Of a stretch of 64,000 nucleotides of DNA, positions 20,310 to 44,894 are shown one piece after another (position 1 is the stretch's first letter; each line of letters begins with the position of its first letter). The translations under genes were made by a program, and so were the position numbers. Below the pieces are notes generated by a model. It worked only from the letters and a program-made list of their open reading frames with translations, did no database searches and was not told the origin of the DNA. This DNA comes from Thermoanaerobaculia bacterium (lineage in GTDB: Bacteria; Acidobacteriota; Thermoanaerobaculia; Multivoradales; UBA5704), in assembly GCA_038248205.1 (NCBI GenBank), contig JBBRUC010000001.1, positions 32,480-96,479 on the forward strand, written 5' to 3'.

Positions 20310-20325
20310 GCGGAGAGGAAAATTA

Positions 20326-21276: not shown

Positions 21277-21309
21277 TCGATCGGCAGATTCTGGAGCTGG
21301 CTCGGCGAA

Positions 21310-22995: not shown

Positions 22996-23017
22996 CCGAG
23001 GGGAGACGGGACGAAAA

Positions 23018-23248
23018 TCAGCTCCGGGTGCCTTTTCCGGGGTCGGGTTTGCTATTCGCTCGAGAACCGAAGAAACCGTCTGGATTGCCAAAGTTTCCCG
23101 CCGCCTGCGTCAATCCGGAAAGGTCTCCGAAAACGATCAATCGCGGACTGGAATAGGCGCTCCGGGCGGTCCACGGACGGTCGGCAAATGTCTCAGAGTC
23201 CACTGACTCTCGCATATTTGCATATCGATCGGACCGAGGCTCGACCAT
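23018..23248 (-). CDS. Candidate lasso peptide precursor (A peptide)
   Basis: 76 aa: MVEPRSDRYANMRESVDSETFADRPWTARSAYSSPRLIVFGDLSGLTQ / AAGNFGNPDGFFGSRANSKPDPGKGTRS. Thr sits at leader position -2 (LTQ). The core starts with Ala and has Asp at position 9 (a 9-residue macrolactam, as in paeninodin AGPGTSTPD) and ends in Ser. GGGGG Shine-Dalgarno before ATG 23248. Located immediately upstream of the cyclase. Codons are AT-richer than the genome average. Confidence 0.55.
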   Translation of the reverse strand: MVEPRSDRYANMRESVDSETFADRPWTARSAYSSPRLIVFGDLSGLTQAAGNFGNPDGFFGSRANSKPDPGKGTRS

Positions 23249-29358: not shown

Positions 29359-29701
29359 AACTCCATTCCCTTTCCCCGGCCAAAAGCATCGCCACGAAGG
29401 CGGGCGCGTCCGGTGCCCCAATGTTGCCGGGTGGGGGCCACCGAACCTCCAATCAAGTAGTCCGCTGCCAAAAATTGCGCAGCGCGAGAGCCAAAGATCG
29501 TCAGTCAACCCTTCGTAAGAGCAAAAAGGCAGTTCCATCTACGGCAAGTAGGAAACGACTCTTCCAAGACTGAGCGCCACATTGGGCTCGATGTTTTGGA
29601 CAGGCGGCACCCTTTGCCCTTCCGTTCAGTCGTTTAGTTGTTTAATGGGAACTTGATGGTTCCCGGGGCGGCTAAGACAATCCGCACTGTAACGAAAGGA
29701 C

Positions 29702-29719
29702 CGTCAGGGTGCCGTCAGG
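29702..29719 (-). promoter_or_regulatory. Heptameric direct repeat pair CGTCAGG-N4-CGTCAGG (11-bp periodicity) upstream of giant gene 1; SARP-type activator site candidate
   Basis: The same CGTCAGGnnnnCGTCAGGAG-N3-4-ATTT(G/T) element occurs upstream of giant gene 2 at 36319..36336. Direct heptads spaced one helical turn apart are the known architecture of SARP-family binding sites. A SARP gene lies at 38602. Confidence 0.4.
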
Positions 29720-29908
29720 AGATATTTGGAGTTTTTCGATCGACCCCTGAGCGGGCTCGTCGGCGCCTGGAGGAACTTCGCGAAAGGGCGCCTTTCAATC
29801 GGGATGGGGGACGCCAGCCAGGAACCTCAAGCGATCCGAGGCGAACCATCAGAACGTGGCACCGCGAGGTGGGCGCTCTTAGAAGTGGATAGAGGAACTG
29901 CGGAAAGC

Positions 29909-29936
29909 GAAGGCCGGAGCCGAAGCGCCGGCCTTC
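29909..29936 (-). terminator. Hairpin just downstream of the giant gene 2 stop
   Basis: GAAGGCCGG-N10-CCGGCCTTC, a 9-bp stem, starts 10 nt after the TAG at 29946..29948. The U-tract is weak (GCTTTCC). Confidence 0.45.
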
Positions 29937-29945
29937 GCATCAAAA

Positions 29946-32900
29946 CTAGTCGCGGTGCGGAGCGCAGAGCAACCCGTTGTTGTAGTCGTCGAGCATGTTG
30001 TGCCACGGCGAGGCCTGAGACCAGGCCGAGCTGCTGCCCCGGACGTTGCTGCCGACCGGATAGGTCTTCAGCCAGTTGTCCGCCGAAGTGATGGTCGCGC
30101 TGATGCAGCTCGACACGTTTCCGACCAGGACGTTCAACTTGGCCGCGATCAACTGCTTGGCCAAATCGATCGACTTGTCGCCCTTGCTCGGCGTGCGGAG
30201 CAGGTTGATCGCCTGAGAGACCGTGTAGGTCTCGTTACCGATCTTGATGCTGGTGACCGGCCAAGCGCTCGCGTGGTTCTTCCAGTAACCGATCGTACCG
30301 GTGCCCGGAGCGGGCGTGGTCGGCGGGCACTGGCCGATGTCGACGTTGATGTCGCCCTGGCCGCTGGTCGGCAGAGCCGAGCCCGACGTCGGCTGGGTCA
30401 CCACCGTCCAGTTCAGCCAGCCCGAACCGCCGTAGTGGAGGTTCTTGCCGTTGGCGCCCGTGCCCACCTGGAACGCCGGACCGACGCGCACCAGATTGAG
30501 CTTGGCACCCGCGGCGCTGCCGGTTCCCGTGAGGGTACCGGTGGCACCCGTGTAGTAGTACCAGGTGGCAGTCTTGATCGGACCGCCGTTCTCGCTGTAG
30601 GCGCTTGCCGCAAGCTCCTTCTTCGGGTTGCCGGCGGGAGCCGTCGTGGTGAAGCCCGAGAAGGTGACGTCCACCGCGAAGCCAAAGTTCGGGTTCGAGG
30701 TGCTTACCAGGGTGCCGGTCAAACGGGCTGTACCGTCGGCCTTCTCGACCAACGAGCCGTTGCCCGGTGAGAAGACGAGATCGGTCGAAATGCCCGGCAG
30801 CCAGATCGCGTGATGGGCGCTCGTTGCGTTGACCGACGAATCGTTGTCGGCCTTGTTGGCGCACTGCACGCAGTCGAAGATGTCGAGGTTGATGTCGCCT
30901 TGGCCGGTCGAGGGATAGCTGCTGCCCGAGGGCTGGGTCGCCGTCCAATGAATCCAGCCGGACGCCCCATAGTGGAGGTTCTTGCCGTTGGCGCCGACGC
31001 CCACTTGGAACGACGGACCGACGTTGGTGATGCTCAAGACGACGCCGGCATTGCCGTCGATGCCCGTCAAGACTCCGCCGAGGTAGCCGTAGTAGCGCCA
31101 GGTGGCCGGATCGATCGGTCCGCCGTTATTGACGTACGCGCTCCCGGCGAGTTCCTTCTTCGGGTTGCCCGGCCCCGGGGTCGTGGTGCGGGCGAAGAAG
31201 TTGATAGCGACCGTGAAGGCGTTGTTCGGATTCGACTGGCTCCGCATCGTACCGGTCAGCGTTGCCGAGCCGTCCGCCTTCTCGAGGAAGGCGCCAGGGT
31301 CGGGGGTGAAGGAGTAGTCGGTGCCGATACCGGGCAGCCACAACGCGTGATTGGCCGCGCTGCCGTTGTACGCCGGATCGTTGTTAGCCTGGTTGGCGCA
31401 GCTCTTCGCGTCGGTCTTGGACTGGTAGCCGAAATCGACGTCGGAGCGGTTCTGGCCCGCAGCCAGTGCCACCGTCGCGCGATGGGCGGTTCCGAGACCA
31501 TCCAGGTCGTAGGTTTGAACGTAACCGGCCGGAAGCGTCGCGCTTTCGACCCGCACCGAGTAGCTACCGGCCGGCAGATTGCCGAACAGGTAGTTGCCGT
31601 TGCCCGAAGTCACCTGGCTGGCGAGGGCGTTGCCACCCGTGTCGAGCAATGTGACGGTGACGCCGTTGATCCCGGCCTCGCCGCCGTCCTGCACCCCGTT
31701 GCCGTTGGCGTCTTCCCACACCCGATCGCCGATCGTCCCTTGCCCCCTGTAGCCAAAGTCGACGTCGGTCCGGTTCTGACCGCCGGTTAAAGCAGCCGTC
31801 GCGATGTGAGCGGTGCCGACTCCATCCAGGTCGTAGCTCGGAACGAGCCCCGCCGGAACGGTCGCCGATTCAACACGGACTTTGTACGTCCCCGCCGGAA
31901 GGTTCGCGAAGGTGTAGTTGCCGTTGCCCGTGGTCACCTGGGTCGCCAGGGCCACGTTGGCAGAGTTGAGGAGAGTAACGGTGACGCCGTTGATCCCGAC
32001 CTCGCCGCCGTCCTGCACACCGTTGGCGTTGAAATCGAGCCAGACCCGGTCACCGAGCGAGGCCGTACCCCGATAGCCGAAGTCCACGTCGGTCCGGTTC
32101 TGAGCCGCCGTCAACGAGGCCGCCGCCGTATGCGGAGTGCCGATCCCGTCGAGGTCGTAGCTCGGGGCCAGACCCGCCGGCAGCGTTGAGGAAACCACCC
32201 GGACCGTATAGTTGCCGGCCGAGAGGTTGGTGAAGTTGTAGGTGCCGTCACCCGACGTCACCTGGGAAGCCACCACGGTGCCGCCGGAATTCAGCAGCTC
32301 GACCGTCACGCCGTTGATCCCGACTTCGCCGCCGTCCTGCACCCCATTGGCGTTGAAATCGAGCCAGACCCGATCGCCGAGCGAGGCCGTGCCCCGGTAG
32401 CCGAAGTCCACGTCCGTCCGGTTCTGTCCCGCCGCCAGAGCGAACGAGGCGCTGTTCGCCGTCCCGAGGCCGTCCAAATCGAACGTCGCTGCCAAGCCTG
32501 CGGGAAGGGTCGCCGGAACCACCTCGACCCGATAGGTACCCGCGACGACGTGGGCGAAGGTGTAGATCCCGTCGCCAGCCGTCACCTGGGTCTCGACGGT
32601 CACGCCGTGCACAGTGTCCACCAAGCGAACCGTCACGCCGTTGATGCCGGTTTCGCCCGCATCCTGGACGCCGTTGCCGTTCGTGTCGTTCCAAACCCGG
32701 TCACCGATCGAGCCGTAGCTGACCGGCGGGCACTCGAACAGGTCGAGGTTGATGTCGCCCTGGCCCGAGCCGACGAGGGTCTCGCCGCCCGACGGCTGGC
32801 TCGTCACCTGCCACTGGTACCAACCCGAGCCACCGAAGTGGAGGTTCTTGTTGTTGGCGCCGACTCCCAGCTGGAAGGCCGGTCCGGTGCTGGAAATCGA

Positions 32901-35900
32901 GATCGAGCCGCCCGCATAGGCGCTCACCCCGACCAGGGTTCCCGAGTAGGACGTGTAGTAGCTCCAGCTCGCCGAATCCGCCACGCCGCCGTTCTCGACG
33001 TAGGCACCAGCGGAAAGCTCCTTCTTCGGGCTGCCCGGAGGAGTGGTCGCGGTGTAGCCCGAGAACAGGATGTCCACCTGGAACCCGTGGGTCGGGCTCG
33101 AAAGGCTGTACATCGTTCCCGTCAGGTGCGCCGTGCCGTCCGCGTTGCGAACGAACGTGCCGTCGACCGGACTGAACTGGAAGTCGGTACCGATCCCCGG
33201 CAGCCAGAACGCGTGGTTGTACGTCGAGCCCAAAACCGCGGGATCGTTGTTGGCGTTGTTTGCGCAGGACGAGCAGTTGCCGAAGTCGACGTTGATGTCA
33301 CCCTGGCCGGACTGCGTGAGCGCCGGACCGCTCGCGGGCTGCGAGGTGACGTTCCACACGAACCAGGCCGACGCCCCGTCGAGCAGGTTTTTGTTGTTGG
33401 CACCCGTGCCGAGCTGGAAGGCGGAGCCGGTGTTGGAAATGCCGATCACCGATCCGGCATACGCATCGATGCCGGTGAGCGTACCGGTGAAGCTCGTGTA
33501 GTACGTAAACGTCGCCGTGTTGACGGGTCCGCCGTTTTCCGAATAGGCGTTTCCGGAGAGCTCTTTCTTCGGGCTGCCCGGAGGAGCCGTCGCGGTCAAG
33601 CCGCTGAGCACCACGTCGACGACGAAGGCCTCGCTCGAATTCGCCGTCCGCCGCACGATGCCCGTCAGGCGAGCGGTTCCGTCCGCCCGCTGTACGAAGC
33701 TGCCGGTCGCCGGAGCGAACTGGAAGTCCAAACCGATGCCGGGCAGGTAGAACGCGTGCCCATCCGGGTTGCTGCCGTAGGCCGGATTGTTGAACGAGCC
33801 CTGCGCGCAGGTCTCGGTGTCGTGCGTGCGATAGCCGAAATCCACGTCGGTGCGATTCTGACCGGCGGCCACGGTGGCCGTTGCCCGGTGCGGTGTCGCG
33901 ACACCGTCGAGGTCATAGGTCGGGCCGAAGCCGGCCGGCAACGTGGTCGAATCGACCACCACCGTGTAGCTTCCGGCCGCCAGGTTGCCGAAGGTGTAGT
34001 TGCCGTCGCCCGAGGTCACCTGCGTCGCGACGACCGTGTTGGTCCCGTCGAGCAGGCGAACGGTGACGCCGTTGATCCCAACCTCGCCGGCATCCTGCAC
34101 ACCGTCGCCGTCGAGATCGCTCCAGACCCGATCGCCCAAGCTGCCGGGCGCCGGAGGCTGCCGGTAGCCGAAATCCACGTCGGTCCGGTTCTGCGACTGC
34201 GCGAGAGCGAAGCTCGCGATGTTCGCCGTACCGGTGCCGTCCAGGTCATAGGTCTGGGCCAAGCCCGCGGGCAGCGTCGCGGTCACCACGCGAACCGAGT
34301 AGTTGCCGGCCGCCAGGTTGTCGAACAAGTAGTTGCCGTTCCCCGAGGTGATTTGGCTGGCCACGACGTTGCCGCCGTTGTCGAGCAGATCAACCGTGAC
34401 GCCGTTGATGCCGTTCTCCCCGCCATCTTGAACGCCGTCGCCATCGGCATCGAGCCAGATCCGGTCGCCGACCGAGGCGTCGTTCGTCGCCGCCTCGGCG
34501 TAACCGAAGTCATACGTTAGCTCGTTGTCGGCCGAAAGCGTTCGGGTGAGCGACTCGCCGCCCGTCGTCGAGGACTTACCTTCCAACGGCTTGCCCGGGC
34601 CGAAGTTGCTTGCCGCGACCCTCACCTCGTAGGTGCCGGGAGCGTCCATGCCGAAGCAGTAGAGACCGTTGATATCGGTTCCCGTGTTGTTCGCCACGCA
34701 CGCCGACCAGTTCGGGCTCGTCGTGTCGCCCGTCTTGGCCGTAGCGATCACCGATCCGTCGCTCGGACGAACCAGCTCCATCAGAACGCCCGGAATGCCC
34801 GCTTCGCCCGGATCCAACACGCCCGGGTTTCCGGTGTCCGACCAGACGAAATCGCCTATCAGGTAGATGGATTCATCCGAACAAGCCGCCACGCGCGGAA
34901 CGTTGTCCGGATCTTCCCCCGGGATCGGATCGCGGGCCGGGCGCGTCGCACAGGTGTCCGCGAACCAGAAATTCAGATTCGCTAGGTCCAGCCCGATGAT
35001 CGTGACTTTCCACATCCCCGAGGGAAGCGTCGCGCCGCCGTAGACCCAATCCGCATCGCCGACGAACGGCGAATTGATGCTCGCGATCAGGAACTGCTCC
35101 CACTCGAAGCTGCCCGAGGGGTTGTCGTTGAAATAGATGTTGCCGTCTGGATCCGTCACTTCGTAGCGGACGCAGCCGATCCGATTCGGATCGCCGGGCT
35201 CGCCACGGCGGAAGGCATCCAAGTTGTTGTCATCAGGGGGAATACCGGGGCCTTGGACCCCTTCGGGGTTGGCGCCGGTGGTCGAGAAGGGGAAGCCGCT
35301 GTAGTCGGCGGCAGTATCGAAGTCGTCCTCGTCCTCGCACGGATCGAGCGCTACGCCGGAAGGCGAGCCGACGGTCGAGGCGGTACCGAAATCGAAGTCG
35401 CCGTCGAACATCCGCAGCTCGGTTTCTCCGCCGGGAAGAGTGAAGAAGAACTCGAACGTGCCGTCATACGTGGTCGGCGCGGTGAGGAACCCGCCCGGGG
35501 GCGGGAAGGTACCGGGATAGAGAATTGGACCGTCATTGAAGAGCTGACGAAACGCGCCAACCAGACCGAACTGCGGAGTCCGGAAGGTCATCGGGTTCGA
35601 GGCCGCGACCTTGATGTTGCTCTCAAGAACCTCGCCCGGGGCGCACGAGCCGTCGAGGCCGATCACCAAGTTATAGAAGTAGTTGCCACTGGGCGCCTGG
35701 GCAACGGCCCCGTTGGTGACCGTCACGGCCCACCAATCGTTGTCCGGCATGGTGCTTGAGCTGGAAGTCCAGAGCGGCCCACTCGTCGGATTGGCTCCGT
35801 TGCCGGTCCAGGTGCCGATCAGATCGGCCGGCGAGGTACTGCCATTGCGCAACGGGTCCGCATACAGAGAGTAAATGAGCTGGCGATTGCCGACGTCCCA

Positions 35901-36182
35901 ATGAGGACGGGCGGCGCCGTCGGGCATCCCGGTTTCGCCGTCGAAGATGTTGACGTCGAACGTAGCATTGGCGGCCGGCGCAGCCATCGCGATTGTGACG
36001 TTCTGCTCGAACGTTGCAATCCCGGCGCAACCGAAGCCAAGGAAACGTCCATCCGTGGCGCTCTGCGACGGAAACGCCGCAAAGGGACCCGGCCCTATCT
36101 GGGCTGATGCTCTACCGAACCCCAACAAGGCTCCTATCGCCACCAAGAGTACAGCTCTCAAAACTTGTCGCTGAGCTTTCAT
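29946..36182 (-). CDS. Giant secreted repeat protein 2 (about 2078 aa): N-terminal domain, 2 SdrD-B, 2 X repeats, 4 SdrD-B, 3 X repeats, C-terminal domain
   Basis: Signal peptide MKAQRQVLRAVLLVAIGALLGFGRASAQ, starting at ATG 36182. The N-terminal 600 aa and the C-terminal 130 aa are over 90% identical to gene 1 (for example QIGPGPFAAFPS(E/Q)SATDGRF(M/L)GFGCAGIATFEQNV). Five copies of the roughly 200-aa X repeat read C..N.NDPA..G....HAFWLPGIGTD..F.P..G.F......GTA.LTG.......P...F.V...F.G.T.T.PPGSPKKEL...AY.ENGG.......YYT...GTL.G.......I....TGPAFQLG.GAN.KNL..G.SGW..W.V.SQP.......GQGDIN.D...C. Confidence 0.8.
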   Translation of the reverse strand: MKAQRQVLRAVLLVAIGALLGFGRASAQIGPGPFAAFPSQSATDGRFLGFGCAGIATFEQNVTIAMAAPAANATFDVNIFDGETGMPDGAARPHWDVGNRQLIYSLYADPLRNGSTSPADLIGTWTGNGANPTSGPLWTSSSSTMPDNDWWAVTVTNGAVAQAPSGNYFYNLVIGLDGSCAPGEVLESNIKVAASNPMTFRTPQFGLVGAFRQLFNDGPILYPGTFPPPGGFLTAPTTYDGTFEFFFTLPGGETELRMFDGDFDFGTASTVGSPSGVALDPCEDEDDFDTAADYSGFPFSTTGANPEGVQGPGIPPDDNNLDAFRRGEPGDPNRIGCVRYEVTDPDGNIYFNDNPSGSFEWEQFLIASINSPFVGDADWVYGGATLPSGMWKVTIIGLDLANLNFWFADTCATRPARDPIPGEDPDNVPRVAACSDESIYLIGDFVWSDTGNPGVLDPGEAGIPGVLMELVRPSDGSVIATAKTGDTTSPNWSACVANNTGTDINGLYCFGMDAPGTYEVRVAASNFGPGKPLEGKSSTTGGESLTRTLSADNELTYDFGYAEAATNDASVGDRIWLDADGDGVQDGGENGINGVTVDLLDNGGNVVASQITSGNGNYLFDNLAAGNYSVRVVTATLPAGLAQTYDLDGTGTANIASFALAQSQNRTDVDFGYRQPPAPGSLGDRVWSDLDGDGVQDAGEVGINGVTVRLLDGTNTVVATQVTSGDGNYTFGNLAAGSYTVVVDSTTLPAGFGPTYDLDGVATPHRATATVAAGQNRTDVDFGYRTHDTETCAQGSFNNPAYGSNPDGHAFYLPGIGLDFQFAPATGSFVQRADGTARLTGIVRRTANSSEAFVVDVVLSGLTATAPPGSPKKELSGNAYSENGGPVNTATFTYYTSFTGTLTGIDAYAGSVIGISNTGSAFQLGTGANNKNLLDGASAWFVWNVTSQPASGPALTQSGQGDINVDFGNCSSCANNANNDPAVLGSTYNHAFWLPGIGTDFQFSPVDGTFVRNADGTAHLTGTMYSLSSPTHGFQVDILFSGYTATTPPGSPKKELSAGAYVENGGVADSASWSYYTSYSGTLVGVSAYAGGSISISSTGPAFQLGVGANNKNLHFGGSGWYQWQVTSQPSGGETLVGSGQGDINLDLFECPPVSYGSIGDRVWNDTNGNGVQDAGETGINGVTVRLVDTVHGVTVETQVTAGDGIYTFAHVVAGTYRVEVVPATLPAGLAATFDLDGLGTANSASFALAAGQNRTDVDFGYRGTASLGDRVWLDFNANGVQDGGEVGINGVTVELLNSGGTVVASQVTSGDGTYNFTNLSAGNYTVRVVSSTLPAGLAPSYDLDGIGTPHTAAASLTAAQNRTDVDFGYRGTASLGDRVWLDFNANGVQDGGEVGINGVTVTLLNSANVALATQVTTGNGNYTFANLPAGTYKVRVESATVPAGLVPSYDLDGVGTAHIATAALTGGQNRTDVDFGYRGQGTIGDRVWEDANGNGVQDGGEAGINGVTVTLLDTGGNALASQVTSGNGNYLFGNLPAGSYSVRVESATLPAGYVQTYDLDGLGTAHRATVALAAGQNRSDVDFGYQSKTDAKSCANQANNDPAYNGSAANHALWLPGIGTDYSFTPDPGAFLEKADGSATLTGTMRSQSNPNNAFTVAINFFARTTTPGPGNPKKELAGSAYVNNGGPIDPATWRYYGYLGGVLTGIDGNAGVVLSITNVGPSFQVGVGANGKNLHYGASGWIHWTATQPSGSSYPSTGQGDINLDIFDCVQCANKADNDSSVNATSAHHAIWLPGISTDLVFSPGNGSLVEKADGTARLTGTLVSTSNPNFGFAVDVTFSGFTTTAPAGNPKKELAASAYSENGGPIKTATWYYYTGATGTLTGTGSAAGAKLNLVRVGPAFQVGTGANGKNLHYGGSGWLNWTVVTQPTSGSALPTSGQGDINVDIGQCPPTTPAPGTGTIGYWKNHASAWPVTSIKIGNETYTVSQAINLLRTPSKGDKSIDLAKQLIAAKLNVLVGNVSSCISATITSADNWLKTYPVGSNVRGSSSAWSQASPWHNMLDDYNNGLLCAPHRD
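31400..32700 (-). repeat. Tandem SdrD-B-like coding repeats (4 units) inside giant gene 2; a further 2 units lie at about 33830..34560; coordinates approximate
   Basis: Same ~309-bp unit as the gene 1 array. Confidence 0.6.
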
Positions 36183-36318
36183 CCGATCACCCTTTCTCCG
36201 ATGGTCCAAAAGACTTCGCGCGCTTTCCGAACTGCCGCCCGACAAGACTCGCAAACCTAAGTAAAACCAAGAGTTTGGCCTGGAACTACCCGCTTGTAGG
36301 GTGATCTTTTTCGGCGAT

Positions 36319-36336
36319 CGTCAGGAAATCGTCAGG
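36319..36336 (-). promoter_or_regulatory. Heptameric direct repeat pair CGTCAGG-N4-CGTCAGG upstream of giant gene 2
   Basis: Exact copy of the gene 1 upstream element, with the same 11-bp spacing, GAG extension and downstream ATTT. Confidence 0.4.
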
Positions 36337-36591
36337 AGGACCATTTTGCCCATCGCGCAAAGGTTCGGACGAGAAGGGAGGTAGCAGGATCTACAGGGCG
36401 AAGCGTGGGTCCTAGGGGACTGCCGGAGGGGGGACTGCGTGGAAGTGTGGAAGTGGAAAACGAAGGCGGGGGCAGGGCGCGGCCGGGCAAGGGGTCCGGT
36501 CTTGGAGCCGGCTTGAACGGTGGGCTCCTGCCCAAGACTTCGAGAGATCCGGCCCACAAGGCGCTCCGGGTCGGCCGCTCCCAGCAAAGAT

Positions 36592-38325
36592 CTACCGCGC
36601 CCTGGAACTCCGCATCCCGGAGAAACCGAAGTCGAAGGTCAAAACGTTGGCCGCGGTGAGGGTGCGGGTCAAAGAGCTGTTCCCGGTCGTCGCCACTTGG
36701 CCGAAGAGCGCCCCTCCCGAGGTGAAGTTACGCGCCGCCACACGAACCTCGTACGTGCCCGGAACATCCTGACCAAAGCAGTACAGACCGTTCGAGTCAA
36801 CGCCCGTGCTGCTCGCCCGGCAGGCTGCCCAGTTCGGACTCGTCGGGTCGCCCGTGACCGCGGTGGCCAGTACCACGCCGTCGCTCGGACGGATCAACTC
36901 CATCACCACACCCGGCATGCCCACCTCGCCCGGATCCAGAACCCCCGGATTCGCCGTGTCCGCCCAGACGAGATTTCCCAAGAGATAAATCGATTCGTCC
37001 CCGCAGGCTGGTACCCGCGGCACGTCGATCGGATCTTCGCTCGGTAGCGGCTCATGAGCCGGACGCGTCGCGCAAGTCTTCGCATACCAGAAGTTCAGAT
37101 TGGCCAAGTCCAAGCCTACGATCGAAACCTTCCAGCTTCCCGCGGGAAGCAGGGCGTCGCCGTAGACATAGTCCGCATCCCCGACGAACGGCGAGTTGAC
37201 GCTCGCGATCAGAAATTGCTCCCACTCGAAGCTGCCCGAAGGGTTGTCGTTGTAATAGACATTGCCGACCGGATCCTGGACTTCGTAGCGTACGCAACCG
37301 ATGCGGTTCGGATCCCCCGGCTCACCGCGCCGGAATGCGTCGAACTTGTTGTCGTCGCTGGGAATGCCTGGCCCCTGGACCCCTTCGGGATTGGCTGCGA
37401 CGACGACGAATGGAAAGTTGCCGTAATCGGCAGGCGTATCGGGGTCGTCCTCGTCCGCACACTCGTCGAGAAACAGGCCCGAAGGCACTCCGCGGGCCGC
37501 ATCGGTGCCGAAATCGAAATCGCCATCGATCAGGCGCAGCTCCGTCTCGGATGCGGAAAGATTAAAATAGAGGTCGAAAGAGCCGTCGTAGGTGGTCGGC
37601 GCGGAAACGAAACTACCGGTAAGCGGCGCCGTCGGCAAGGAGCCCGGATAGAGGATCGGCAGGTCTGCTGCGAGCTGTCGTAGCGCGCCGACCAAACCGA
37701 AGTGAGAGGTGTTGAAGCTGACGGGGTAGGAAGCCGCGATCTTGAAGTTGCTTTCCAATATTTCGCCTACTTCGCAGGCTCCATCCGTATCGATCACCAG
37801 ATTGTAAAAGTAGTTTCCGCTTGGCGTCTGGGCGATGGCAGCGTTGGTGATTGTCACCCCCCACCATGCGTTGTCCGGCATGTTCGCCGCGGTGGAAGTC
37901 CACAGCGGACCGGCGATTGGATTTCTCTTATTGCCGTACCAAACACCGATTAAATCGGCCGGCAAAATACTCCCTTTGCGCGACGGATCGGCGTGCAGCG
38001 CAAATTTCAGCTGGCGGGTGCCAAGATCCCAGTGGGCGGTGTCCATACCGTCGAGCCCACCGGTTTCTCCATCGAATAGATTGAGGGAGAAGGTCGAGGT
38101 GGACGCGGGCACGGCAAGCGCTACCTGAACATTGCGTTCCAAGGTCGCGAGGCCCGCACAGGCAAGGCCTAGGAATCGCCCGTCCGTAGCGCTCTCCGAC
38201 GGGAAAGACGCGAGAGGCTTTGGCCCCAATTGGCCTCGCGCGGAAACGAACCCCAGGAGAGTTCCAAGGATCGAGAAAAGAGCGACCCGCAAAACATTCG
38301 ACAACGAACGAATCACGCTACTCAT
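36592..38325 (-). CDS. Truncated paralog 3 (about 577 aa): N-terminal domain of the giant proteins only, no repeat region or C-terminal domain
   Basis: Signal peptide MSSVIRSLSNVLRVALFSILGTLLGFVSARGQ. Roughly 50% identical to the N-terminal domains of genes 1 and 2 (FDGDFDFGT, NPEGVQGPGIP.DDN, DAFRRGEPGDPNRIGCVRYEV, GSFEWEQFLIAS, WKVSIVGLDLANLNFW, YCFG.D.PGTYEVRVAA.NF). AAGGGGGG Shine-Dalgarno before ATG 38325. Confidence 0.75.
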   Translation of the reverse strand: MSSVIRSLSNVLRVALFSILGTLLGFVSARGQLGPKPLASFPSESATDGRFLGLACAGLATLERNVQVALAVPASTSTFSLNLFDGETGGLDGMDTAHWDLGTRQLKFALHADPSRKGSILPADLIGVWYGNKRNPIAGPLWTSTAANMPDNAWWGVTITNAAIAQTPSGNYFYNLVIDTDGACEVGEILESNFKIAASYPVSFNTSHFGLVGALRQLAADLPILYPGSLPTAPLTGSFVSAPTTYDGSFDLYFNLSASETELRLIDGDFDFGTDAARGVPSGLFLDECADEDDPDTPADYGNFPFVVVAANPEGVQGPGIPSDDNKFDAFRRGEPGDPNRIGCVRYEVQDPVGNVYYNDNPSGSFEWEQFLIASVNSPFVGDADYVYGDALLPAGSWKVSIVGLDLANLNFWYAKTCATRPAHEPLPSEDPIDVPRVPACGDESIYLLGNLVWADTANPGVLDPGEVGMPGVVMELIRPSDGVVLATAVTGDPTSPNWAACRASSTGVDSNGLYCFGQDVPGTYEVRVAARNFTSGGALFGQVATTGNSSLTRTLTAANVLTFDFGFSGMRSSRAR

Positions 38326-38601
38326 GGTTACCCCCCTTAGCGGCCGACACACTCCGCCGCAGGGGCTTACTTTGCGCCAACTGAAAGCTCGTATAGGCCG
38401 GACAAAATAGCGCAGCGCGCGATTGTCCCCCCATCGGCGAATCGGGGTTCTGAGTTAGGATCGCCCTCTCTTGCGATTGCGGCCAACGAACAACCTCTGA
38501 TAAGGCCAGTTCCCCCGTGAGCTACGAGCGATTTATCCGCCGAGCCCTTCGATCGAGCTGGCCTTCCGCGCGATGAGGTTCCCGGCCGGAGGTGTTGTAG
38601 C

Positions 38602-40848
38602 GTGATTCGAGTTCGGTTATTCGGCGGCTTCGAGGTCTGGCACGGAGATCGGCAGGTGCGAGGCTTCGAGTCCCAGAAGGTCCGAGCCCTCTTCGCCTAT
38701 TTGGCCTGTCAGTCGGCGCGCGCATTCAGTCGCGATCACCTCGCCGGCCTGCTCTGGCCCGAACAGGAAGACGACGGCGCACGGCACGCGCTGCGCCAAG
38801 CGCTCTATAACTTGCGTTCTGCGCTTCCCGGGCGTGACTCGGCGAACCCGCCGCTTCTGGTGAGCCACGGCGAGATCCGTATCAACCCGGCGGCGGGCCT
38901 TTGGGTCGACGTCCATGCCTTCGAGGAGTCGATCAAGCGTGGCGCCGCGCGGGACGCCGCCGACCCTCATCACCTCGCGACCGCGGTCCAATTGTATCGA
39001 GGCGATTTTTTGGTGGGTTTTTTCGTTCGCGACAGCAACACGTTCGAGGAGTGGCTGATCGCCGAGCAGGAGCGCCTTCGAGAGGCGACGGTCGAGGCGC
39101 TACACACCTTGATCGAGAGCTACCGGCGCCGGGGCGAATATCGATTTGGCCTGCACTATGCCCGACGGCTCGTCGCCCTGGAACCTCTCGCCGAGGAACC
39201 CCGACGCAACCTGATGCAGTTCTACGCGATGACCGGGCGCCGCAGCCAGGCGCTTGCCGAGTACGAGGATCTGGTGGCCCTCCTCGATCGCGAACTCGGT
39301 GTCGATCCCTTAGGGGAAACCCTGGAACTCTACGAATCGATCCGGGACGACGCGCCGACGCAAGGGGTTCCTCTCGCGGACGGCGAGCCGATCGGCCCGA
39401 TCATCCCCCTGGCGGGGCGCCGCGGCGCTTGGGATCGGCTTCGCGACAGCTGGCGCAGGGCTCTCTCCGGAGAGACCCCCGTCACTTTGGTCGTGGGAGA
39501 GACCGGCATCGGCAAAACCCGGCTGATCCGTACTTTTCTCGACGCGGTGAGCGGCTCTCGCCGAATCGTCGTCCTGCGCGGCGCAGGCCGGCCCTCGACT
39601 CTGCCGATACCGTTTCTCCCCTGGCTCGACCTCTTGCGTGGCGCGTTTGACGAGGCGACCGAAGGCGGCGGCCCCGACCCCGCGGCGCTTACGCCCCAAA
39701 AGTTCGGAGACCTCGCACGCCTTCTGCCCGAGATCGGATCTCGCCGCCCCGAGCTACCCTCTCCGGCGCCGTTGAAACGCGCAGCCGAGCGGCGACGGTT
39801 CTTCGAGAACGTGATCGACTACCTCGGCGCTTTTTGCTCCGCCGGCCCAGGAGTGGCGACCGTGCCGTTGGTGATCTTTCTCGACGACCTTCACCTGGTC
39901 GACGAGGACTCCCTGGAGCTTCTCTACGCGGCGATCTCTCGATTGCATGGGCAACCCTGTTGGTTCCTGATCGCCTCCGAGGTGATCGACCCGTCCGAGG
40001 CCCCGCCCTTCTTCTCTGAAGTTATCGCGCTCGCCGAGCGCGTCGAGATTCGACGGTTCGACGACAGCGCGATCGAAGAGATCGCCGCCTCCTTGGTTGG
40101 CGACGATCGTGCGAGAGAGCTGTCTCACTGGCTCGCCGGCCGGAGTAAAGGCCTGCCGTTCGCGATCGCGGAGCTGATCAACCTGCTCTGGGACGAGGGG
40201 CTGCTGACGCCTGGCGAAAACGGCATATGGCAGCTCGCATCCTCTTTGGAAACCGCGGAGGTGCCCACCAGCGGAGAACTCGGCGCCCTGCTCGGCGAAC
40301 GGGTCCGGCGGCTCCCCTCCTCGATCCGACGGCTGGCGATCCAAGCGGCGTTTGCCGGCGGCAGCTTCGAGGCCGACCTGCTCCAAAAGGCGGCTGACGA
40401 ACACCCGGCGGTGGTCGAAATCGGCCTTGAGCTGCTGCTCAAGCGGTGGCTGATCCGCCAGAGCATTCGGTACTGGTCGACTTTCGGCCGGGCATCCGAT
40501 GTCGCACTGTGGAACCGGGGCGCCCGGCGGGGCAGCTTCGAGTTCGCGCACCAGCAGGTGCGCGAGGCCCTGGCGTCTTCCGTCGTGCCGGAACGGCAAA
40601 GAGCCCTCCACGCCCGGATCGCCTCGACTCTAGAGACTCTGGCCGCGGATCATCTGGAGAGCCACTTCGAAGAACTCGCCGGGCATTACCTGGCAGCCGA
40701 GATGTGGAACCGAGCCCTCCCCTACCTTGAACTGGCGGAGAACCGAGCCCGGGGCCTGTTCGCCCGCACCGCCGCGGCGCGCTACGCCGCCGCGGCAGCC
40801 GAGGCGCGATTCCACCTCACCACCGAAAAATCTGGAACGACAGAGTAA
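38602..40848 (+). CDS. AfsR-like SARP-family transcriptional activator (OmpR-type winged helix, BTAD, NB-ARC-type P-loop ATPase, C-terminal helical repeats)
   Basis: N-terminus VIRVRLFGGFEVWHGDRQVRGFESQKVRALFAYLA (SARP DNA-binding domain). The BTAD region has MQFYAMTGRRSQALAEYEDLVALLDRELGVDP. Walker A VVGETGIGKTRL. GTG start at 38602, divergent from paralog 3. Confidence 0.8.
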   Translation: MIRVRLFGGFEVWHGDRQVRGFESQKVRALFAYLACQSARAFSRDHLAGLLWPEQEDDGARHALRQALYNLRSALPGRDSANPPLLVSHGEIRINPAAGLWVDVHAFEESIKRGAARDAADPHHLATAVQLYRGDFLVGFFVRDSNTFEEWLIAEQERLREATVEALHTLIESYRRRGEYRFGLHYARRLVALEPLAEEPRRNLMQFYAMTGRRSQALAEYEDLVALLDRELGVDPLGETLELYESIRDDAPTQGVPLADGEPIGPIIPLAGRRGAWDRLRDSWRRALSGETPVTLVVGETGIGKTRLIRTFLDAVSGSRRIVVLRGAGRPSTLPIPFLPWLDLLRGAFDEATEGGGPDPAALTPQKFGDLARLLPEIGSRRPELPSPAPLKRAAERRRFFENVIDYLGAFCSAGPGVATVPLVIFLDDLHLVDEDSLELLYAAISRLHGQPCWFLIASEVIDPSEAPPFFSEVIALAERVEIRRFDDSAIEEIAASLVGDDRARELSHWLAGRSKGLPFAIAELINLLWDEGLLTPGENGIWQLASSLETAEVPTSGELGALLGERVRRLPSSIRRLAIQAAFAGGSFEADLLQKAADEHPAVVEIGLELLLKRWLIRQSIRYWSTFGRASDVALWNRGARRGSFEFAHQQVREALASSVVPERQRALHARIASTLETLAADHLESHFEELAGHYLAAEMWNRALPYLELAENRARGLFARTAAARYAAAAAEARFHLTTEKSGTTE

Positions 40849-40899
40849 CCTCGTGCCACGAACCCGCGCCGAGCTGGCTCTCGGCGCAAGGAGCCCCCG

Positions 40900-41433
40900 A
40901 TGACCCTTACGACCGAACGTAGCTGTCCGAGCGGCAAGCCCGCGCGGAAATCTCGTCTGACGCCGGAGGAACGCGCGGCGGCGATCGCGGCGATTCGAGC
41001 CACGCCGGCCGAACTTCGCACCGCCTTGGCCGGGCTCTCCGAGGAACAGCTCGATACTCCCTATCGACCCGGCGGCTGGACCGTCCGCCAGGTCGCCCAT
41101 CACGTGCCGGACAGTCACATGAACGCCTACATCCGGCTGAAACTGGCGCTCACCGAAGATCGTCCGCGAATCAAGCCGTACGATCAGGATGGCTGGTCCC
41201 GGTTGGCCGATACCGCGAACACTCCCGTCGGGGTATCTCTGGCGCTGCTCGAAGCGCTTCATGTCCGCTGGGTGGAGCTGCTCTGCGCGATGAAGCCGAC
41301 GGAATTCGAGCGGACGCTCGAACATCCCGAACTCGGCGAGGTCACCCTCGATTCCGTAGTCGGTCTCTACGCCTGGCATGGGCGGCACCACGTCGCCCAC
41401 GTGACCCGGCTCCGCGAGCGGGAGGGTTGGTAG
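40900..41433 (+). CDS. DinB_2/YfiT-like metal-dependent four-helix-bundle protein
   Basis: PGGWTVRQVAHHVPDSHMNAYIRLKLALTEDRPRIKPYDQDGW ... YAWHGRHHVAHV shows the DinB/YfiT His triad pattern. Confidence 0.65.
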   Translation: MTLTTERSCPSGKPARKSRLTPEERAAAIAAIRATPAELRTALAGLSEEQLDTPYRPGGWTVRQVAHHVPDSHMNAYIRLKLALTEDRPRIKPYDQDGWSRLADTANTPVGVSLALLEALHVRWVELLCAMKPTEFERTLEHPELGEVTLDSVVGLYAWHGRHHVAHVTRLREREGW

Positions 41434-41459
41434 GCGCAACGGCCGGAGCTGTCGGCGTT

Positions 41460-41702
41460 CTATGCGGCAGGGGCCAAGGTTGTCAGGCGTTGGGGAAGTT
41501 GCGCCAAGAAATCGCCAAGATCCTCGGTGTCGGGCAGGACGATCTCTACCTTGCCGTTGGCCAGCCTCTGGACTGAGCCTGAGCCCTCCATCGCGAGCGG
41601 TACCTGCACCGCTTCTCGATCGAGCGGAATCTCATCGATCACCTCGAACAACCGCTGCATCGCTTCCTGGGTGAGAATTCGCACCGTCAAATGCCCTCTC
41701 AA
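41460..41702 (-). CDS. Hypothetical small protein (80 aa)
   Basis: The only ORF in a 360-bp gap, with protein-like composition. No recognizable domain. Confidence 0.25.
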   Translation of the reverse strand: MRGHLTVRILTQEAMQRLFEVIDEIPLDREAVQVPLAMEGSGSVQRLANGKVEIVLPDTEDLGDFLAQLPQRLTTLAPAA

Positions 41703-41796
41703 GGTAGATTACCATCCTAAAAACCCGTCCGGAGTACGAGCCCGGCTCAAGATAGAATTCCGGCGATAAGCTTACGCTTCGAGGCCCTCTACGATC

Positions 41797-44340
41797 ATGG
41801 CGGAACGCCGCGACATTGGTGAGCGATACCGAATCACCCGAAAGCTTGGGGAGAGCGCATTTACCAGCGTTCACGCCGCGACGGACGCCACGAACGGCGC
41901 CATGGTGGTGGTCAAGCGGATCGCTCCCGGGCGCAACCCGGAGGCGATGTCGCGATTTCTCCAGACCGCCACGGCCCTGGCCAAGATTCGCCACCCGACC
42001 ATCCCTTCGCTCCTCGATTTCGGCACGCTGCCGGACGGCGGCGCATTCATGCTGCTTGAGCCGGTCGCCGGCCGGGGACTCGAAGTGCTGGCGGGCGCGG
42101 CACCCGCCGAAGTGCTCTCCCATCTGCTTCAGGTTCTCGACGGGCTCGAGCTTCTCGGCCAAAGCGGCATCGCTCACGGCAATCTGGTGGCGGAAAACAT
42201 TCGCTTGGCCGGAACCTCCACGGGAGAGCAGGCGAAGCTTCTCGGCTTCGGCACCCGCATCCTCCATCCGCCGATCGCCGGCATGCCCGGGGTCGAAGGT
42301 ACGGCACCCGAGATGCTCGCCGATGGCGCAGGCGACAGCCGTTCCGACGTGTACTCCTTTGCCCGTATCGCCTGTCGGCTCCTCGACATCGGAATTCAAA
42401 ACGACTCCCGGGGAGAGCCTGAGCTCTCCCTGCCGCTCGGCGTAAGCTTCGAGCTGGAGGACGCGGAAGCCCTGCGCCAGGCGCTTCTGCGCTCGTTGCG
42501 CCGATCGCCCGCCGATCGCCCGAGCTGGAACGAGGTTCGCGAGGGTCTGCGCACGGCGCTGCGCGGACCGGTCGCCCAACCGTCGGTGGGCGAGAAGACC
42601 AACCCGGTCTACATTCCTCCTTCCGCGACCGACGGCGATCCTCCGGCGCTCCGATTCGAGGAATCTTTCGAAGGATCAACCCCGGCACCGTCCGCACTGC
42701 TGGAAGCCCTGCCTCCGCTCGCTTTCGCGGATCCACTTCCGCCGTCGGCGCCGCCTACCCCGCCGACGCCATCGATACCACCAACGGCGACGACCCCGCC
42801 AATACCGGCGCCGATACCGGCGACCCCGATTCCACCGAGCCCGAAACCTCCCGCGCCGGTTTCGGCGTCGGACGATCTCTTGTCCTCGGTCGAAGACTTT
42901 CTCGCCGCACCGATCGTCGCTCCGATCACCGCACCGGCGGCCCAAAGGGAGGTCGCCCCGGCGTTTGCGATGCCGATCAAGCCGCCCGATACCGCCGAGA
43001 TTCCGGTCGTCCCCCAACCGCGGCGGTCACCCGGCAAGAGCAAAAAGGTGATCCTGATCGCTCTGGCCGCCGCCATCGGTCTCGGCGTATTGGCCGCGAT
43101 TTTGATCTACCTGCGGGATCGAGACGTCGATCCGTTTGAGATTCAAGACGAGCTGAGAGTCCCGGCGACACCCGCGGCAACGCCCAGCGCGCCGATCGAC
43201 TTTCAATCGACCCTCGGGGACGTCGCTCCGGCCGGAAATCCCGGCCTGGCCGCGGCGCGCGCCGCGCTCGATGCGGGAAATCCTTCGGCCGCCCTCGCGG
43301 CGCTCAATGCCCTTGATGCCTCCTCGCTTTCGCCGGAGGAACGCGAGGAAGCCAAGGCGCTGCGCGATTCGCTCGGCCAATCGCAGATCGAGCGCCTTGC
43401 CGCCGATCTGAAGCGCGGTTTGCGAACCGGCAACGTGACCACCTTGCGTTCCACGGTTCGCGCCATTACCGCGAACCGGACGGCATTCTTCAAGGACAAT
43501 CCGAGCCTCCGGACGGATTTCGATCGAGCCAAGGAGATCGTCCGCCTTTCGGCGCAGCTGCAACAAGCCGCCAAGGGGAGCGATCCGCTCGCGACCGTCC
43601 GCCTCGCCGGCTCGTTCGCCGAGCTGGCGCCGCGCGACAAGACGGCCCCCCGGCTGCGCGAACAAGCGGCCGCGACGATCGAAGCCGAGGCCGATCGGCT
43701 GAGCCAAAGCGGTCAAGCCCAGGTCGCTCTCAACCGGCTGGAAGCCCTGCGCGCCGCCTGGCCGGAGAGGCCGGGAGTGAGGGAACGGATCGGCCGTATT
43801 CGGACCGTCGCCGAGGTCGACCCGCGGCTCGACCGAGTCCTCGCGAACGCCCAAGCGGCGGCGCAGCGCAAGCGGCCCGACGAGGGCCTCGCGATCCTGC
43901 GCGCGGCGAACCCGACCGGCCCCTATGTCGAGCGCTTTCGGGAGCTGTCCGATCGGTTGAAAGCCGATTTCGCCCAACTGGACCAGAATCCTCCGGCGAT
44001 CGAGCTTCGCGAAGGTTCCGCGAGCGAGTTCGAGAAGGGTGCGACCACGCGGGTCTCGCTGCGGATCACCGACGATTTCCAGGTGGCGAAAACCGCCCTC
44101 TTCGCCCGCCCCGAGGGAGGCTCCTGGCAGACCTTGGAGCTACGCCAATCCGGGTCGTTCTACACGACCGAGATCCCGGCGAGCTTCCATCAGAACAAGA
44201 ACCTTCAGTGGTACGCGACCGCCACCGACGTCTCCGGCCATACGGCCCAGCTAGGCAGCGAGAGTGCGCCCAGGGTCCTCAAGCGAAAGAAATGGTTCGA
44301 CCGCATCCGCGGCAGCAAGGAGGAGGACGGCGGGCGGTAA
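41797..44340 (+). CDS. Ser/Thr protein kinase-like protein, predicted pseudokinase; Pro-rich linker, one TM helix, C-terminal helical/TPR-like domain
   Basis: Kinase fold markers are present: GxGxxG-like LGESAFTSV, VAIK-like VVVKRI, and APE (GTAPEMLA). The catalytic HRD is replaced by HGN (IAHGNLVAENI) and DFG by GFG (KLLGFGTR). A TM segment lies at KKVILIALAAAIGLGVLAAILIYL. Confidence 0.7.
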   Translation: MAERRDIGERYRITRKLGESAFTSVHAATDATNGAMVVVKRIAPGRNPEAMSRFLQTATALAKIRHPTIPSLLDFGTLPDGGAFMLLEPVAGRGLEVLAGAAPAEVLSHLLQVLDGLELLGQSGIAHGNLVAENIRLAGTSTGEQAKLLGFGTRILHPPIAGMPGVEGTAPEMLADGAGDSRSDVYSFARIACRLLDIGIQNDSRGEPELSLPLGVSFELEDAEALRQALLRSLRRSPADRPSWNEVREGLRTALRGPVAQPSVGEKTNPVYIPPSATDGDPPALRFEESFEGSTPAPSALLEALPPLAFADPLPPSAPPTPPTPSIPPTATTPPIPAPIPATPIPPSPKPPAPVSASDDLLSSVEDFLAAPIVAPITAPAAQREVAPAFAMPIKPPDTAEIPVVPQPRRSPGKSKKVILIALAAAIGLGVLAAILIYLRDRDVDPFEIQDELRVPATPAATPSAPIDFQSTLGDVAPAGNPGLAAARAALDAGNPSAALAALNALDASSLSPEEREEAKALRDSLGQSQIERLAADLKRGLRTGNVTTLRSTVRAITANRTAFFKDNPSLRTDFDRAKEIVRLSAQLQQAAKGSDPLATVRLAGSFAELAPRDKTAPRLREQAAATIEAEADRLSQSGQAQVALNRLEALRAAWPERPGVRERIGRIRTVAEVDPRLDRVLANAQAAAQRKRPDEGLAILRAANPTGPYVERFRELSDRLKADFAQLDQNPPAIELREGSASEFEKGATTRVSLRITDDFQVAKTALFARPEGGSWQTLELRQSGSFYTTEIPASFHQNKNLQWYATATDVSGHTAQLGSESAPRVLKRKKWFDRIRGSKEEDGGR

Positions 44341-44348
44341 CCGCGGCG

Positions 44349-44894
44349 CTATTTCCCCGCCGCCTCCGCCATCCGGCGGTTGAATTCCTCGGTCTTGCCG
44401 CGCGGCACCGTGAGCGGCCGCCAGGTCTCGGAAACGTAGTGCTTGGCGAGCATGACGATCTGGCCGACGTGGTACGCCTGGTGGCAGAGCGATCGTTGGA
44501 GCGCCTCGACCACCGAATGCGGCTCGTGGCGGATGGTGATGGTCTTCAGCAGATCGTCCGGCGTTAGGCTCGCCAAGGTCGAGAGCAGACACCCCCAACC
44601 CTCCTCCCAACGGGCCATCAGCTGCGCGCGCGTCGTATCGGGTGCCACTTCGAACTCCGCGTCGCGATGTCGGTCGGGCTTCTCGCCGTCGGTAGTCAAG
44701 AAGTCGGTGAACCGGGAGCGCAAATTACCGCCCATGTGTTGAACCAAGACCGCGAGACTGTTCGTCTCGCGGTCGAGGGTGAGAAAGAGATCCTCGTCCG
44801 AAACCTGCGCGAGCGCTGCTTCGGCGAGCGTCTTGTGGCCGCGGAACCGTTTTTCCAACTCTTCGATCAGATGCTGCCCGACTACCTCGGCCAT
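44349..44894 (-). CDS. DinB/DUF664-like four-helix-bundle protein
   Basis: 181 aa with a conserved His pattern (LVQHMGGNL ... CHQAYHVGQIVML). Confidence 0.55.
   Translation of the reverse strand: MAEVVGQHLIEELEKRFRGHKTLAEAALAQVSDEDLFLTLDRETNSLAVLVQHMGGNLRSRFTDFLTTDGEKPDRHRDAEFEVAPDTTRAQLMARWEEGWGCLLSTLASLTPDDLLKTITIRHEPHSVVEALQRSLCHQAYHVGQIVMLAKHYVSETWRPLTVPRGKTEEFNRRMAEAAGK

Follow-up and report, generated by a model that had tools for sequence, protein, structure and literature searches.

A predicted receptor-like pseudokinase and a SARP-LAL-type regulator encoded close together in a Thermoanaerobaculia bacterium

A protein with a kinase fold is counted as a pseudokinase when at least one of the beta3 Lys, the HRD Asp and the DFG Asp is missing (PMC12599244). 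As a category, bacterial pseudokinases are already recognised and have barely been studied by experiment, and the current classification into seven families, drawn from RefSeq and UniProt, is silent on the Acidobacteria in both of its sources (PMC12599244 and the bSTK atlas preprint). AfsR is phosphorylated by AfsK, an active kinase; the SARP-LAL regulators of Streptomyces (PimR, SanG and FilR) consist of a SARP module and a P-loop half related to LAL regulators and guanylate cyclases, with no LuxR helix-turn-helix; and SARP sites are heptameric direct repeats with 4-nucleotide spacers (11-nucleotide spacing) that overlap the -35 element (PMC10972967). Described here are a kinase-like gene and a SARP-type regulator gene that lie close together in 64,000 nucleotides of DNA, the window, from a Thermoanaerobaculia bacterium (GenBank assembly GCA_038248205.1, contig JBBRUC010000001.1, positions 32,480 to 96,479 of the forward strand). 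A preliminary description, made from the letters alone, had read positions 38602-44340 as an AfsR-like SARP-ATPase next to a Ser/Thr kinase-like protein and had likened the two to AfsK/AfsR. It is considered probable, though well short of certain, that they are instead two functionally separate units, a receptor-like pseudokinase and a SARP-LAL-type activator, brought close together by chance in one genus-level clade.

Motifs, conservation and architecture of the kinase-like protein

Pfam places a Pkinase domain at residues 11-196 of the 847-residue protein (E 4e-10), and its motifs were located by phmmer alignment to the solved structures of StkP, PknG and PknB. The catalytic loop, GIAHGNLVAENI, aligns with GIVHRDLKPQNI of StkP, which sets H127-G128-N129 in the place of HRD and V131 in that of the catalytic-loop Lys, and GFG takes the place of DFG. 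Both substitutions had been named in the preliminary description, which had proposed an alignment to Hanks-type kinases as the check, and the alignment to StkP confirms their placement. The beta3 Lys (K40, in AMVVVK opposite StkP EEVAVK) and APE (A170-P171-E172) are retained, as had also been described; the Gly-rich loop, listed along with them, is lost, GESAFT lying opposite GRGGMA and GFGGMS with the first Gly alone remaining. The alphaC Glu is replaced by T57 (RFLQTA opposite StkP RFQREA) in a helix, residues 50-63, that holds no acidic residue at all; members of the distant clade have a Glu two residues before the aligned position, and in those members the alphaC loss is ambiguous. The columns of the family alignment are indexed on a PknB reference, and the independent alignment to StkP places the motifs identically. 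Of the features of a competent Hanks-type (eukaryotic protein kinase, ePK) enzyme, the fold and the beta3 Lys are thus present, while the Gly-rich loop, the alphaC Glu, the HRD Asp, the HRDxK Lys and the DFG Asp are absent. Because the catalytic base, the metal-binding Asp and the three other elements are all missing, the protein is most likely unable to transfer phosphate. With two of the three defining catalytic residues gone, and their loss conserved, it falls within the definition of a pseudokinase given above, and the earlier prediction of a catalytically dead kinase stands: judged by its sequence, the 847-residue protein is most likely a catalytically inactive pseudokinase, and the loss is old.

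The same pattern runs through the family. When one genome per GTDB species was scanned for orthologues, 36 loci came to light, their identity ranging over 31-90% and their labels being Thermoanaerobaculia, Holophagales or Acidobacteriota without exception; each of the 36 has H-[GLHF]-N, G-[FL]-G and a degenerate Gly-rich loop while retaining the Lys, the catalytic-loop Asn, APE and the alphaF Asp. Chance does not account for the catalytic substitutions, since all of the orthologues examined share them. Identity to the distant clade is 38-45% in the kinase domain and 31-36% in the ectodomain, and the better conservation of the former points to purifying selection on the dead domain; the orthologue alignment contains an invariant stretch at residues 212-262, which corresponds to alphaH-alphaI in the C-lobe. 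The window protein is itself identical to an NCBI protein (P0001), about 18 orthologues were found along with it, and the named relatives come from metagenome-assembled genomes of Thermoanaerobaculia or Acidobacteriota.

A wider view came from an ectodomain profile run against the representatives of 1.84 billion clusters (50% identity). At E<=1e-3 it matched 591 proteins, 235 of which also pass E<=1e-30, with the domain C-terminal in all of them. Among the best 150 of the 591 matches, 110 have a kinase-like N-terminus, and the remaining 40 include many short sequences (233-650 residues) that are probably fragments. Within the 110 kinase-bearing representatives the beta3 Lys is retained in 100 and the catalytic-loop Asn in 100, H-x-N occurs in more than 80 (the catalytic-loop pattern of the family being H-x-N....N), G[LFW]G in 92, and 98 have zero or one Gly in the Gly-rich loop. 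By these comparisons the pseudokinase family is large, old, essentially restricted to Thermoanaerobaculia and Acidobacteriota, and uniform in its substitutions. One protein, P0018, was considered as a kinase-less member and rejected: kinase-like sequence lies just upstream of it in a fragmented long-read assembly (L007, 3140-3756), and the missing domain is probably an artefact of gene calling or a frameshift. A 50-residue open reading frame (ORF) is called directly 3' of the pseudokinase gene in distant-clade loci (L003 12669-12821, L004 3838-3990 and L007 5694-5846).

The near invariance of K40, N134, APE and the alphaF Asp, together with the conservation in most members of an Asn in place of the HRD Asp, raises the possibility that a non-canonical activity has been kept, whether Mg-independent as in CASK, weak as in HER3, or some other nucleotide-dependent reaction that uses the beta3 Lys and the catalytic-loop Asn; the repurposing of pseudokinase folds for other reactions has precedents in SidJ and SelO (PMC12599244). 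Such an activity is nevertheless thought quite unlikely, for two reasons: first, the five elements listed above have been lost together, and second, the orthologue alignment contains no conserved acidic residue that could compensate for them.

In order from the N-terminus, the inactive-kinase reading gives a protein with a cytoplasmic pseudokinase domain, a Pro-rich linker, a transmembrane helix and a periplasmic domain. The AlphaFold2 model of residues 1-280 (pLDDT 83, pTM 0.81) has Staphylococcus aureus Stk1 and Xanthomonas PknS as its top Foldseek matches, with TM-scores of about 0.7, and HER3 at rank 12. A hydropathy scan agrees with the preliminary description in finding a transmembrane helix, a single one, and because the basic stretch RRSPGKSKK stands on its N-terminal side the topology is predicted to be N-in, C-out. 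The large helical, TPR-like C-terminal domain that had been described is only partly borne out, a helical repeat being present in the model and the remainder forming an Ig-like beta-sandwich. Compared with the PDB by Foldseek, the ectodomain model returned generic matches alone (TPR proteins such as P58IPK; the PPAD C-terminal domain, titin Ig and adhesin Ig), which offer no functional lead.

A few members of the family have kept a complete kinase. Five of the 110 representatives retain the full canonical set (xxGGMG, K, E, HRD, N, DLG and SPE), and the kinase domain of one of these, P0246, is 45-50% identical to ordinary Thermoanaerobaculia kinases. The gene of P0246 (L050, 1-10397) and a Tad/Flp pilus operon are divergently oriented, and the T2SSE ATPase of that operon has an FHA domain. 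In a second locus (L131, 4976-15537) four genes follow one another on one strand: a 959-residue pseudokinase (HLN/GFG; ectodomain match E 2e-97), directly downstream of it a 917-residue canonical kinase with the same ectodomain (HRD/DLG; E 1.5e-89), and farther downstream a 1037-residue canonical kinase with TPR and then a 502-residue FHA protein. In a crude neighbour-joining tree of the ectodomain the canonical-motif members do not form one basal clade, and the tree supports no particular history, be it a single loss, repeated loss or domain swap.

The FHA proteins beside these canonical relatives (in L050 and L131) and the composition of the 146-residue linker, rich in Pro, Ala, Ser and Thr, would suit a phospho-acceptor platform, in which active Hanks-type kinases phosphorylate the linker and FHA proteins are thereby recruited, MviN of Mycobacterium tuberculosis being the precedent (PMC12599244). 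This explanation is regarded as unlikely, given that the linker is poorly conserved and of variable length among orthologues and that no FHA gene lies near the pseudokinase gene in the 36 genome loci.

The regulator, its neighbours and a tandem heptamer box

The regulator has the arrangement that marks a SARP, an N-terminal OmpR-type winged helix-turn-helix followed by BTAD. Pfam gives BTAD at E 1.8e-24 and AAA_16 at E 5e-23, along with AAA_22, and Trans_reg_C at 23.1 bits, just under its cut-off of 26.2; PF00486 is recorded for most orthologues. Its sequence matches in the PDB are AfsR (8hvr, E 2.7e-7, residues 3-248) and EmbR (2fez), and both Walker motifs are intact (Walker A GETGIGKT at 299, Walker B VIFLDD at 424). 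The Pfam scan found no NB-ARC, TPR (E<=0.01) or FHA domain in it, and the AfsR equivalog model NF053617 scores 32.7 bits against a cut-off of 1430, covering the SARP module alone; on these scores the regulator is not an AfsR orthologue. Residues 267-734 match positions 480-919 of TIGR03903 (E 6.5e-29), the ATPase part of TOMM kinase/cyclase fusions, and no LuxR-type domain was found by the domain scans. Its domain content therefore assigns the regulator to the SARP-LAL subclass, a SARP module joined to a LAL/cyclase-type P-loop half. The label of AfsR-like SARP-ATPase given to it in the preliminary description thus holds for the winged helix-turn-helix, BTAD and the P-loop ATPase and fails for orthology with AfsR. 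The accompanying remark that SARPs are uncommon outside Actinobacteria does not apply to this lineage, in which the family is abundant: a homologue search returned 1211 proteins, the best 120 of which are all at least 48% identical over at least 77% of the query (mostly 94-100%), and those of the 120 with a named source come from Thermoanaerobaculia or Acidobacteriota. Mean column identity in the family alignment is 66%.

The neighbours of the regulator were surveyed by a metagenome scan with the regulator alignment, which gave 80 loci, of which 27 were kept (at least 6 kb long and at least 45% identity). In 25 of the 27 a gene with SdrD_B repeats lies immediately upstream of the regulator on the opposite strand, and many also have lasso-peptide genes and groEL. 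The window follows this pattern, with three consecutive SdrD_B genes and a lasso-peptide set downstream of them on the same strand (table). The set includes a transglutaminase-like B2 protein (NF033537, 67.4 bits against a cut-off of 33), a B1 protein with a PqqD-like RRE, and a cyclase, their Pfam families scoring above cut-offs; PqqD and the lasso cyclase are the best NCBIfam matches for their ORFs and stay under the NCBIfam cut-offs. In relatives the parts resembling the 586- and 2102-residue SdrD_B proteins appear to form part of one longer gene. In the window a copy of the intergenic region that bears the box also stands between these two genes, pointing to either a rearrangement or a join made in assembly.

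The box in question is a tandem direct repeat, CGTCAGG-N4-CGTCAGG, with an 11-nucleotide period, found by aligning the upstream regions of orthologous regulators; a search for repeats in the upstream region of the window regulator by itself gave short chance repeats only. With up to two mismatches, the box occurs on the coding strand of the regulator within 600 nucleotides upstream of its start in 64 of 87 loci (for example L047, 7887-7904, and L053, 4125-4142), against a background of 0.006 per 600 nucleotides, and never on the other strand of the upstream regions of the 87. In many loci TAnAAT follows some 19 nucleotides after the box, and then a conserved TGATCTGACA. Further copies lie 2.4-4.6 kb farther upstream, and in the loci checked these are at the 5' ends of SdrD_B genes. 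In its pattern the tandem heptamer box looks like a putative SARP operator outside Actinobacteria.

Gene order and the relation between regulator and pseudokinase

The preliminary description had placed the regulator and the kinase-like gene next to each other. The interval 38602-44340 holds four genes, not two, a YfiT/DinB_2 gene and a minus-strand ORF separating the pair (table); GC content of the window is about 65%. A scan of 38200-44600 for promoter and terminator consensus sequences gave nothing exceeding the shuffled background and is uninformative on operon structure.

Table. Features of the window, with positions counted from its first letter
Feature	Position	Strand	Basis
Lasso-peptide set: Asn-synthase-like cyclase, HprK-related protein, PqqD (B1), transglutaminase-like B2	19535..23091	-	Pfam, NCBIfam
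Three consecutive SdrD_B/CarboxypepD_reg repeat genes (2016, 2102 and 586 residues), divergent from the regulator	23488..38352	-	Pfam
Putative box CGTCAGGGTGCCGTCAGG, 164 nucleotides upstream of the start of the 2016-residue SdrD_B gene	29702..29719	+	box scan
Putative box CGTCAGGAAATCGTCAGG, 64 nucleotides upstream of the start of the 2102-residue SdrD_B gene	36319..36336	+	box scan
SARP-LAL-like regulator, 748 residues: winged helix-turn-helix, BTAD, AAA_16 P-loop ATPase, helical C-terminal region	38602..40848	+	ORF, Pfam, NCBIfam
YfiT-family bacillithiol transferase (DinB_2), between regulator and pseudokinase genes	40900..41433	+	Pfam; NCBIfam NF009807, 226.8 bits (cut-off 160)
80-residue ORF, divergent from the pseudokinase gene	41460..41702	-	ORF list
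Gene of the 847-residue single-pass membrane protein (predicted pseudokinase)	41797..44340	+	ORF, Pfam Pkinase, relatives
Predicted pseudokinase domain, residues 1-262, bilobal kinase fold	41797..42582	+	AlphaFold2 model, Foldseek, StkP alignment
Catalytic-loop remnant HGNLVAEN, residues 127-134; HRD Arg, HRD Asp and loop Lys gone, Asn (N134) kept	42175..42198	+	StkP alignment
GFG (G150-F151-G152) replacing the metal-binding DFG	42244..42252	+	KLLGFG aligned with StkP KVTDFG
Juxtamembrane linker, residues 270-415, 146 residues, 29% Pro, poorly conserved	42604..43041	+	alignment, composition
Single transmembrane helix, residues 417-439	43045..43113	+	hydropathy scan
Periplasmic helical-repeat (TPR-like) region, residues ~482-728	43240..43980	+	AlphaFold2 model m75e9e456bd00, pLDDT 84
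C-terminal Ig-like beta-sandwich, residues ~734-830	43996..44286	+	AlphaFold2 model (pLDDT 84), Foldseek
DUF1572/DinB-like gene, convergent with the pseudokinase gene	44349..44894	-	Pfam; syntenic in the close clade

The block formed by the BTAD gene, YfiT, the pseudokinase gene and DUF1572 occurs only where the pseudokinase is at least 70% identical to that of the window (L001, L002, L008-L012 and L051). L005, at 50% identity, keeps YfiT and DUF1572 as neighbours, and its contig ends before any BTAD gene could show. The distance between the YfiT and pseudokinase genes varies: it is 52 bp with nothing between them in L009, about 350 bp with a small minus-strand ORF in the window and L012, about 1160 bp with an enoyl-CoA hydratase gene and a small ORF, both on the minus strand, in L001, L008, L010 and L011 (genes called in L001), and about 2660 bp with one additional gene in L005. 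In several close-clade loci there are genes on the opposite strand between regulator and pseudokinase. Beyond the close clade no BTAD gene was found in more than 25 distant pseudokinase loci (31-45% identity, flanks of up to 10 kb), and from the other side the pseudokinase is present in one of the 27 regulator loci, L051, which belongs to the close clade. A pair of the AfsK/AfsR type would combine an active kinase with a conserved gene association; here the catalytic residues are absent, the association is confined to the closest clade, the regulator is not an AfsR orthologue, and the pairing likened to AfsK/AfsR is not supported. In summary, the proximity of the pseudokinase and regulator genes is a local accident of gene order, with shallow synteny.

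A pairing independent of phosphorylation has to be weighed separately, in which the pseudokinase, as a sensor or scaffold, would bind the SARP encoded nearby and modulate it, an analogue of AfsK/AfsR minus the phosphate. In the window no more than 950 bp separate the two genes, which share a strand; the block is kept in eight close loci; L009 has the three genes in uninterrupted succession on one strand; and in L006 the pseudokinase gene is still inside the GroESL, lasso and SdrD neighbourhood, though rearranged. Such a link is nonetheless held to be very improbable, for the following reasons: first, it is missing from the distant pseudokinase loci and from 26 of the 27 regulator loci; second, the genes between the two differ from locus to locus and often lie on the other strand; third, there is no box upstream of the pseudokinase gene; fourth, the regulator lacks an FHA or other phospho-binding domain; and fifth, it has other conserved partners. 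Of the earlier suggestion that a pseudokinase scaffold or sensor modulates the SARP, the non-catalytic receptor or scaffold role fits, and the connection to the SARP, not conserved outside the closest clade, is not supported.

With the two genes taken as separate units, the pseudokinase is most likely a transmembrane scaffold or allosteric module. Binding of a ligand or partner at the periplasmic domain would alter the oligomeric state or conformation of the pseudokinase domain, whose conserved C-lobe (alphaH-alphaI) may serve as the docking site for a partner in the cytoplasm; possible candidates are a canonical kinase with that periplasmic domain, FHA proteins, or both. The canonical paralogues allow this to be taken one step further, to a system like that of HER3 in which the pseudokinase pairs through the shared ectodomain with the few canonical members and allosterically controls their output to FHA effectors; this extension is put forward tentatively and is thought rather unlikely to hold, and if true it would amount to a bacterial heterodimer system of receptor kinase and pseudokinase. 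The regulator would be an ATP-switched transcription activator that most likely binds the CGTCAGG-N4-CGTCAGG repeats of its own neighbourhood and controls its own promoter, the divergent SdrD_B genes together with the lasso-peptide genes, or both, and not the pseudokinase gene.

Several points weigh against this account of two separate units and their workings. In L009 the BTAD, DinB and pseudokinase genes are consecutive on one strand, and co-transcription there is possible; synteny also leaves room for a physical interaction between proteins encoded far apart. Single substitutions such as those of HER3 (HRN) and CASK (GFG) can leave residual or Mg-independent activity. No second kinase and no second ectodomain copy lies within 10 kb of the pseudokinase gene in any of the 36 genome loci, the tandem arrangement occurring in L131 only. 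As for the regulator, the upstream region of the window BTAD gene (38353-38601) contains no box, and both window boxes are on the strand opposite to their SdrD genes, which leaves the promoter they serve ambiguous.

Some features of the surroundings stand apart from these questions. The 80-residue ORF has no match in a Pfam scan; a small minus-strand gene of 74-84 residues occupies a similar position upstream of the pseudokinase gene in L001, L005 and L006, the likeness being one of position and size. In relatives such a gene usually precedes an enoyl-CoA hydratase gene, which the window lacks; a 269-residue minus-strand ORF (40630-41439) was considered as its counterpart and rejected because of its overlap with the YfiT gene, which is well supported. 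Close-clade loci have a gene of the DinB superfamily on either side of the pseudokinase gene, the YfiT bacillithiol transferase and DUF1572, and in the distant clade the bacillithiol biosynthesis genes bshABC (GT4, PIG-L and BshC; L003, 18849-22350) lie about 7 kb from the pseudokinase gene, which may be coincidence. DinB genes are very numerous in Acidobacteria. Farther along the window, at 50569-53085 (+), is the gene of an 838-residue protein with a Trp-halogenase domain (E 1e-105) and an N-terminal extension of about 330 residues that has no Pfam match; it is syntenic in L001.

Comparison with known systems

What is shared with AfsK/AfsR is a large SARP that has an NTPase domain and, a few genes away from it, the gene of a Hanks-type protein. 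The likeness ends there, the kinase being predicted to be dead, the regulator lacking NB-ARC and TPR, and the gene pairing not being conserved. The regulator is closer to PimR, SanG and FilR, with which it shares the order of its domains and its location inside gene clusters; the binding sites of those regulators are heptamer direct repeats with 4-nucleotide spacers, a layout that its own candidate box also shows. It differs from these Streptomyces proteins in its Acidobacteriota host, in a box, CGTCAGG, that is not the Streptomyces consensus and whose binding here is predicted, and in its neighbours, the SdrD_B giants and the lasso set. Together, the regulator and its tandem box, with their ties to giant surface proteins and a lasso cluster, make it possible to test SARP-type activation directly in a lineage other than Actinobacteria.

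For the pseudokinase, the best sequence and structure matches are PknB, StkP and Stk1, which have the same plan of an N-terminal cytoplasmic kinase fold, a single transmembrane helix and a C-terminal extracytoplasmic sensor. The window protein departs from them in having neither of the catalytic Asps, nor the Gly-rich loop, the alphaC Glu or the loop Lys, and in an ectodomain made of a helical repeat and an Ig-like domain, not of PASTA. With the described bacterial pseudokinases, ActPs1-3 (including the MviN domain), GLW, CP1, DYD, DLHK and EssB/YukC, it shares a degraded Hanks fold, often followed by a transmembrane helix C-terminal to the domain, and a proposed role as a scaffold. The pattern of the window family is a kept beta3 Lys, H-x-N and G[LF]G, combined with a transmembrane helix and a helical-repeat/Ig ectodomain. 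This is unlike ActPs2, in which the Lys has become Arg and DFG is deleted; ActPs3, in which all three motifs are degraded; GLW, where Leu or Trp replaces the Lys; DLHK, which keeps HRD; and CP1, which has no transmembrane helix (all PMC12599244). On these sequence features the window family lies outside ActPs2, ActPs3, GLW, DLHK and CP1, from which it is set apart by their text descriptions and not by profiles. Compared in the same way, by text descriptions, it was not found described in PMC12599244 or in the bSTK atlas preprint.

By analogy the protein is most like a receptor pseudokinase, and here HER3 (ErbB3) provides the comparison. HER3 is an ATP binder that has retained DFG and the Gly-rich loop, and its kinship with the window protein is that of the kinase fold alone, heterodimerisation in the present family being hypothetical. 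The two nevertheless have in common a single-pass receptor plan, the change of the HRD Asp to Asn, the loss of the alphaC Glu and the existence of competent paralogues with the same type of ectodomain, a relation that the tandem pair of L131 fits. A family in which a few canonical members stand on the same ectodomain as many degraded ones thus provides a natural comparison between a receptor kinase and the non-catalytic signalling module that may have come from it.

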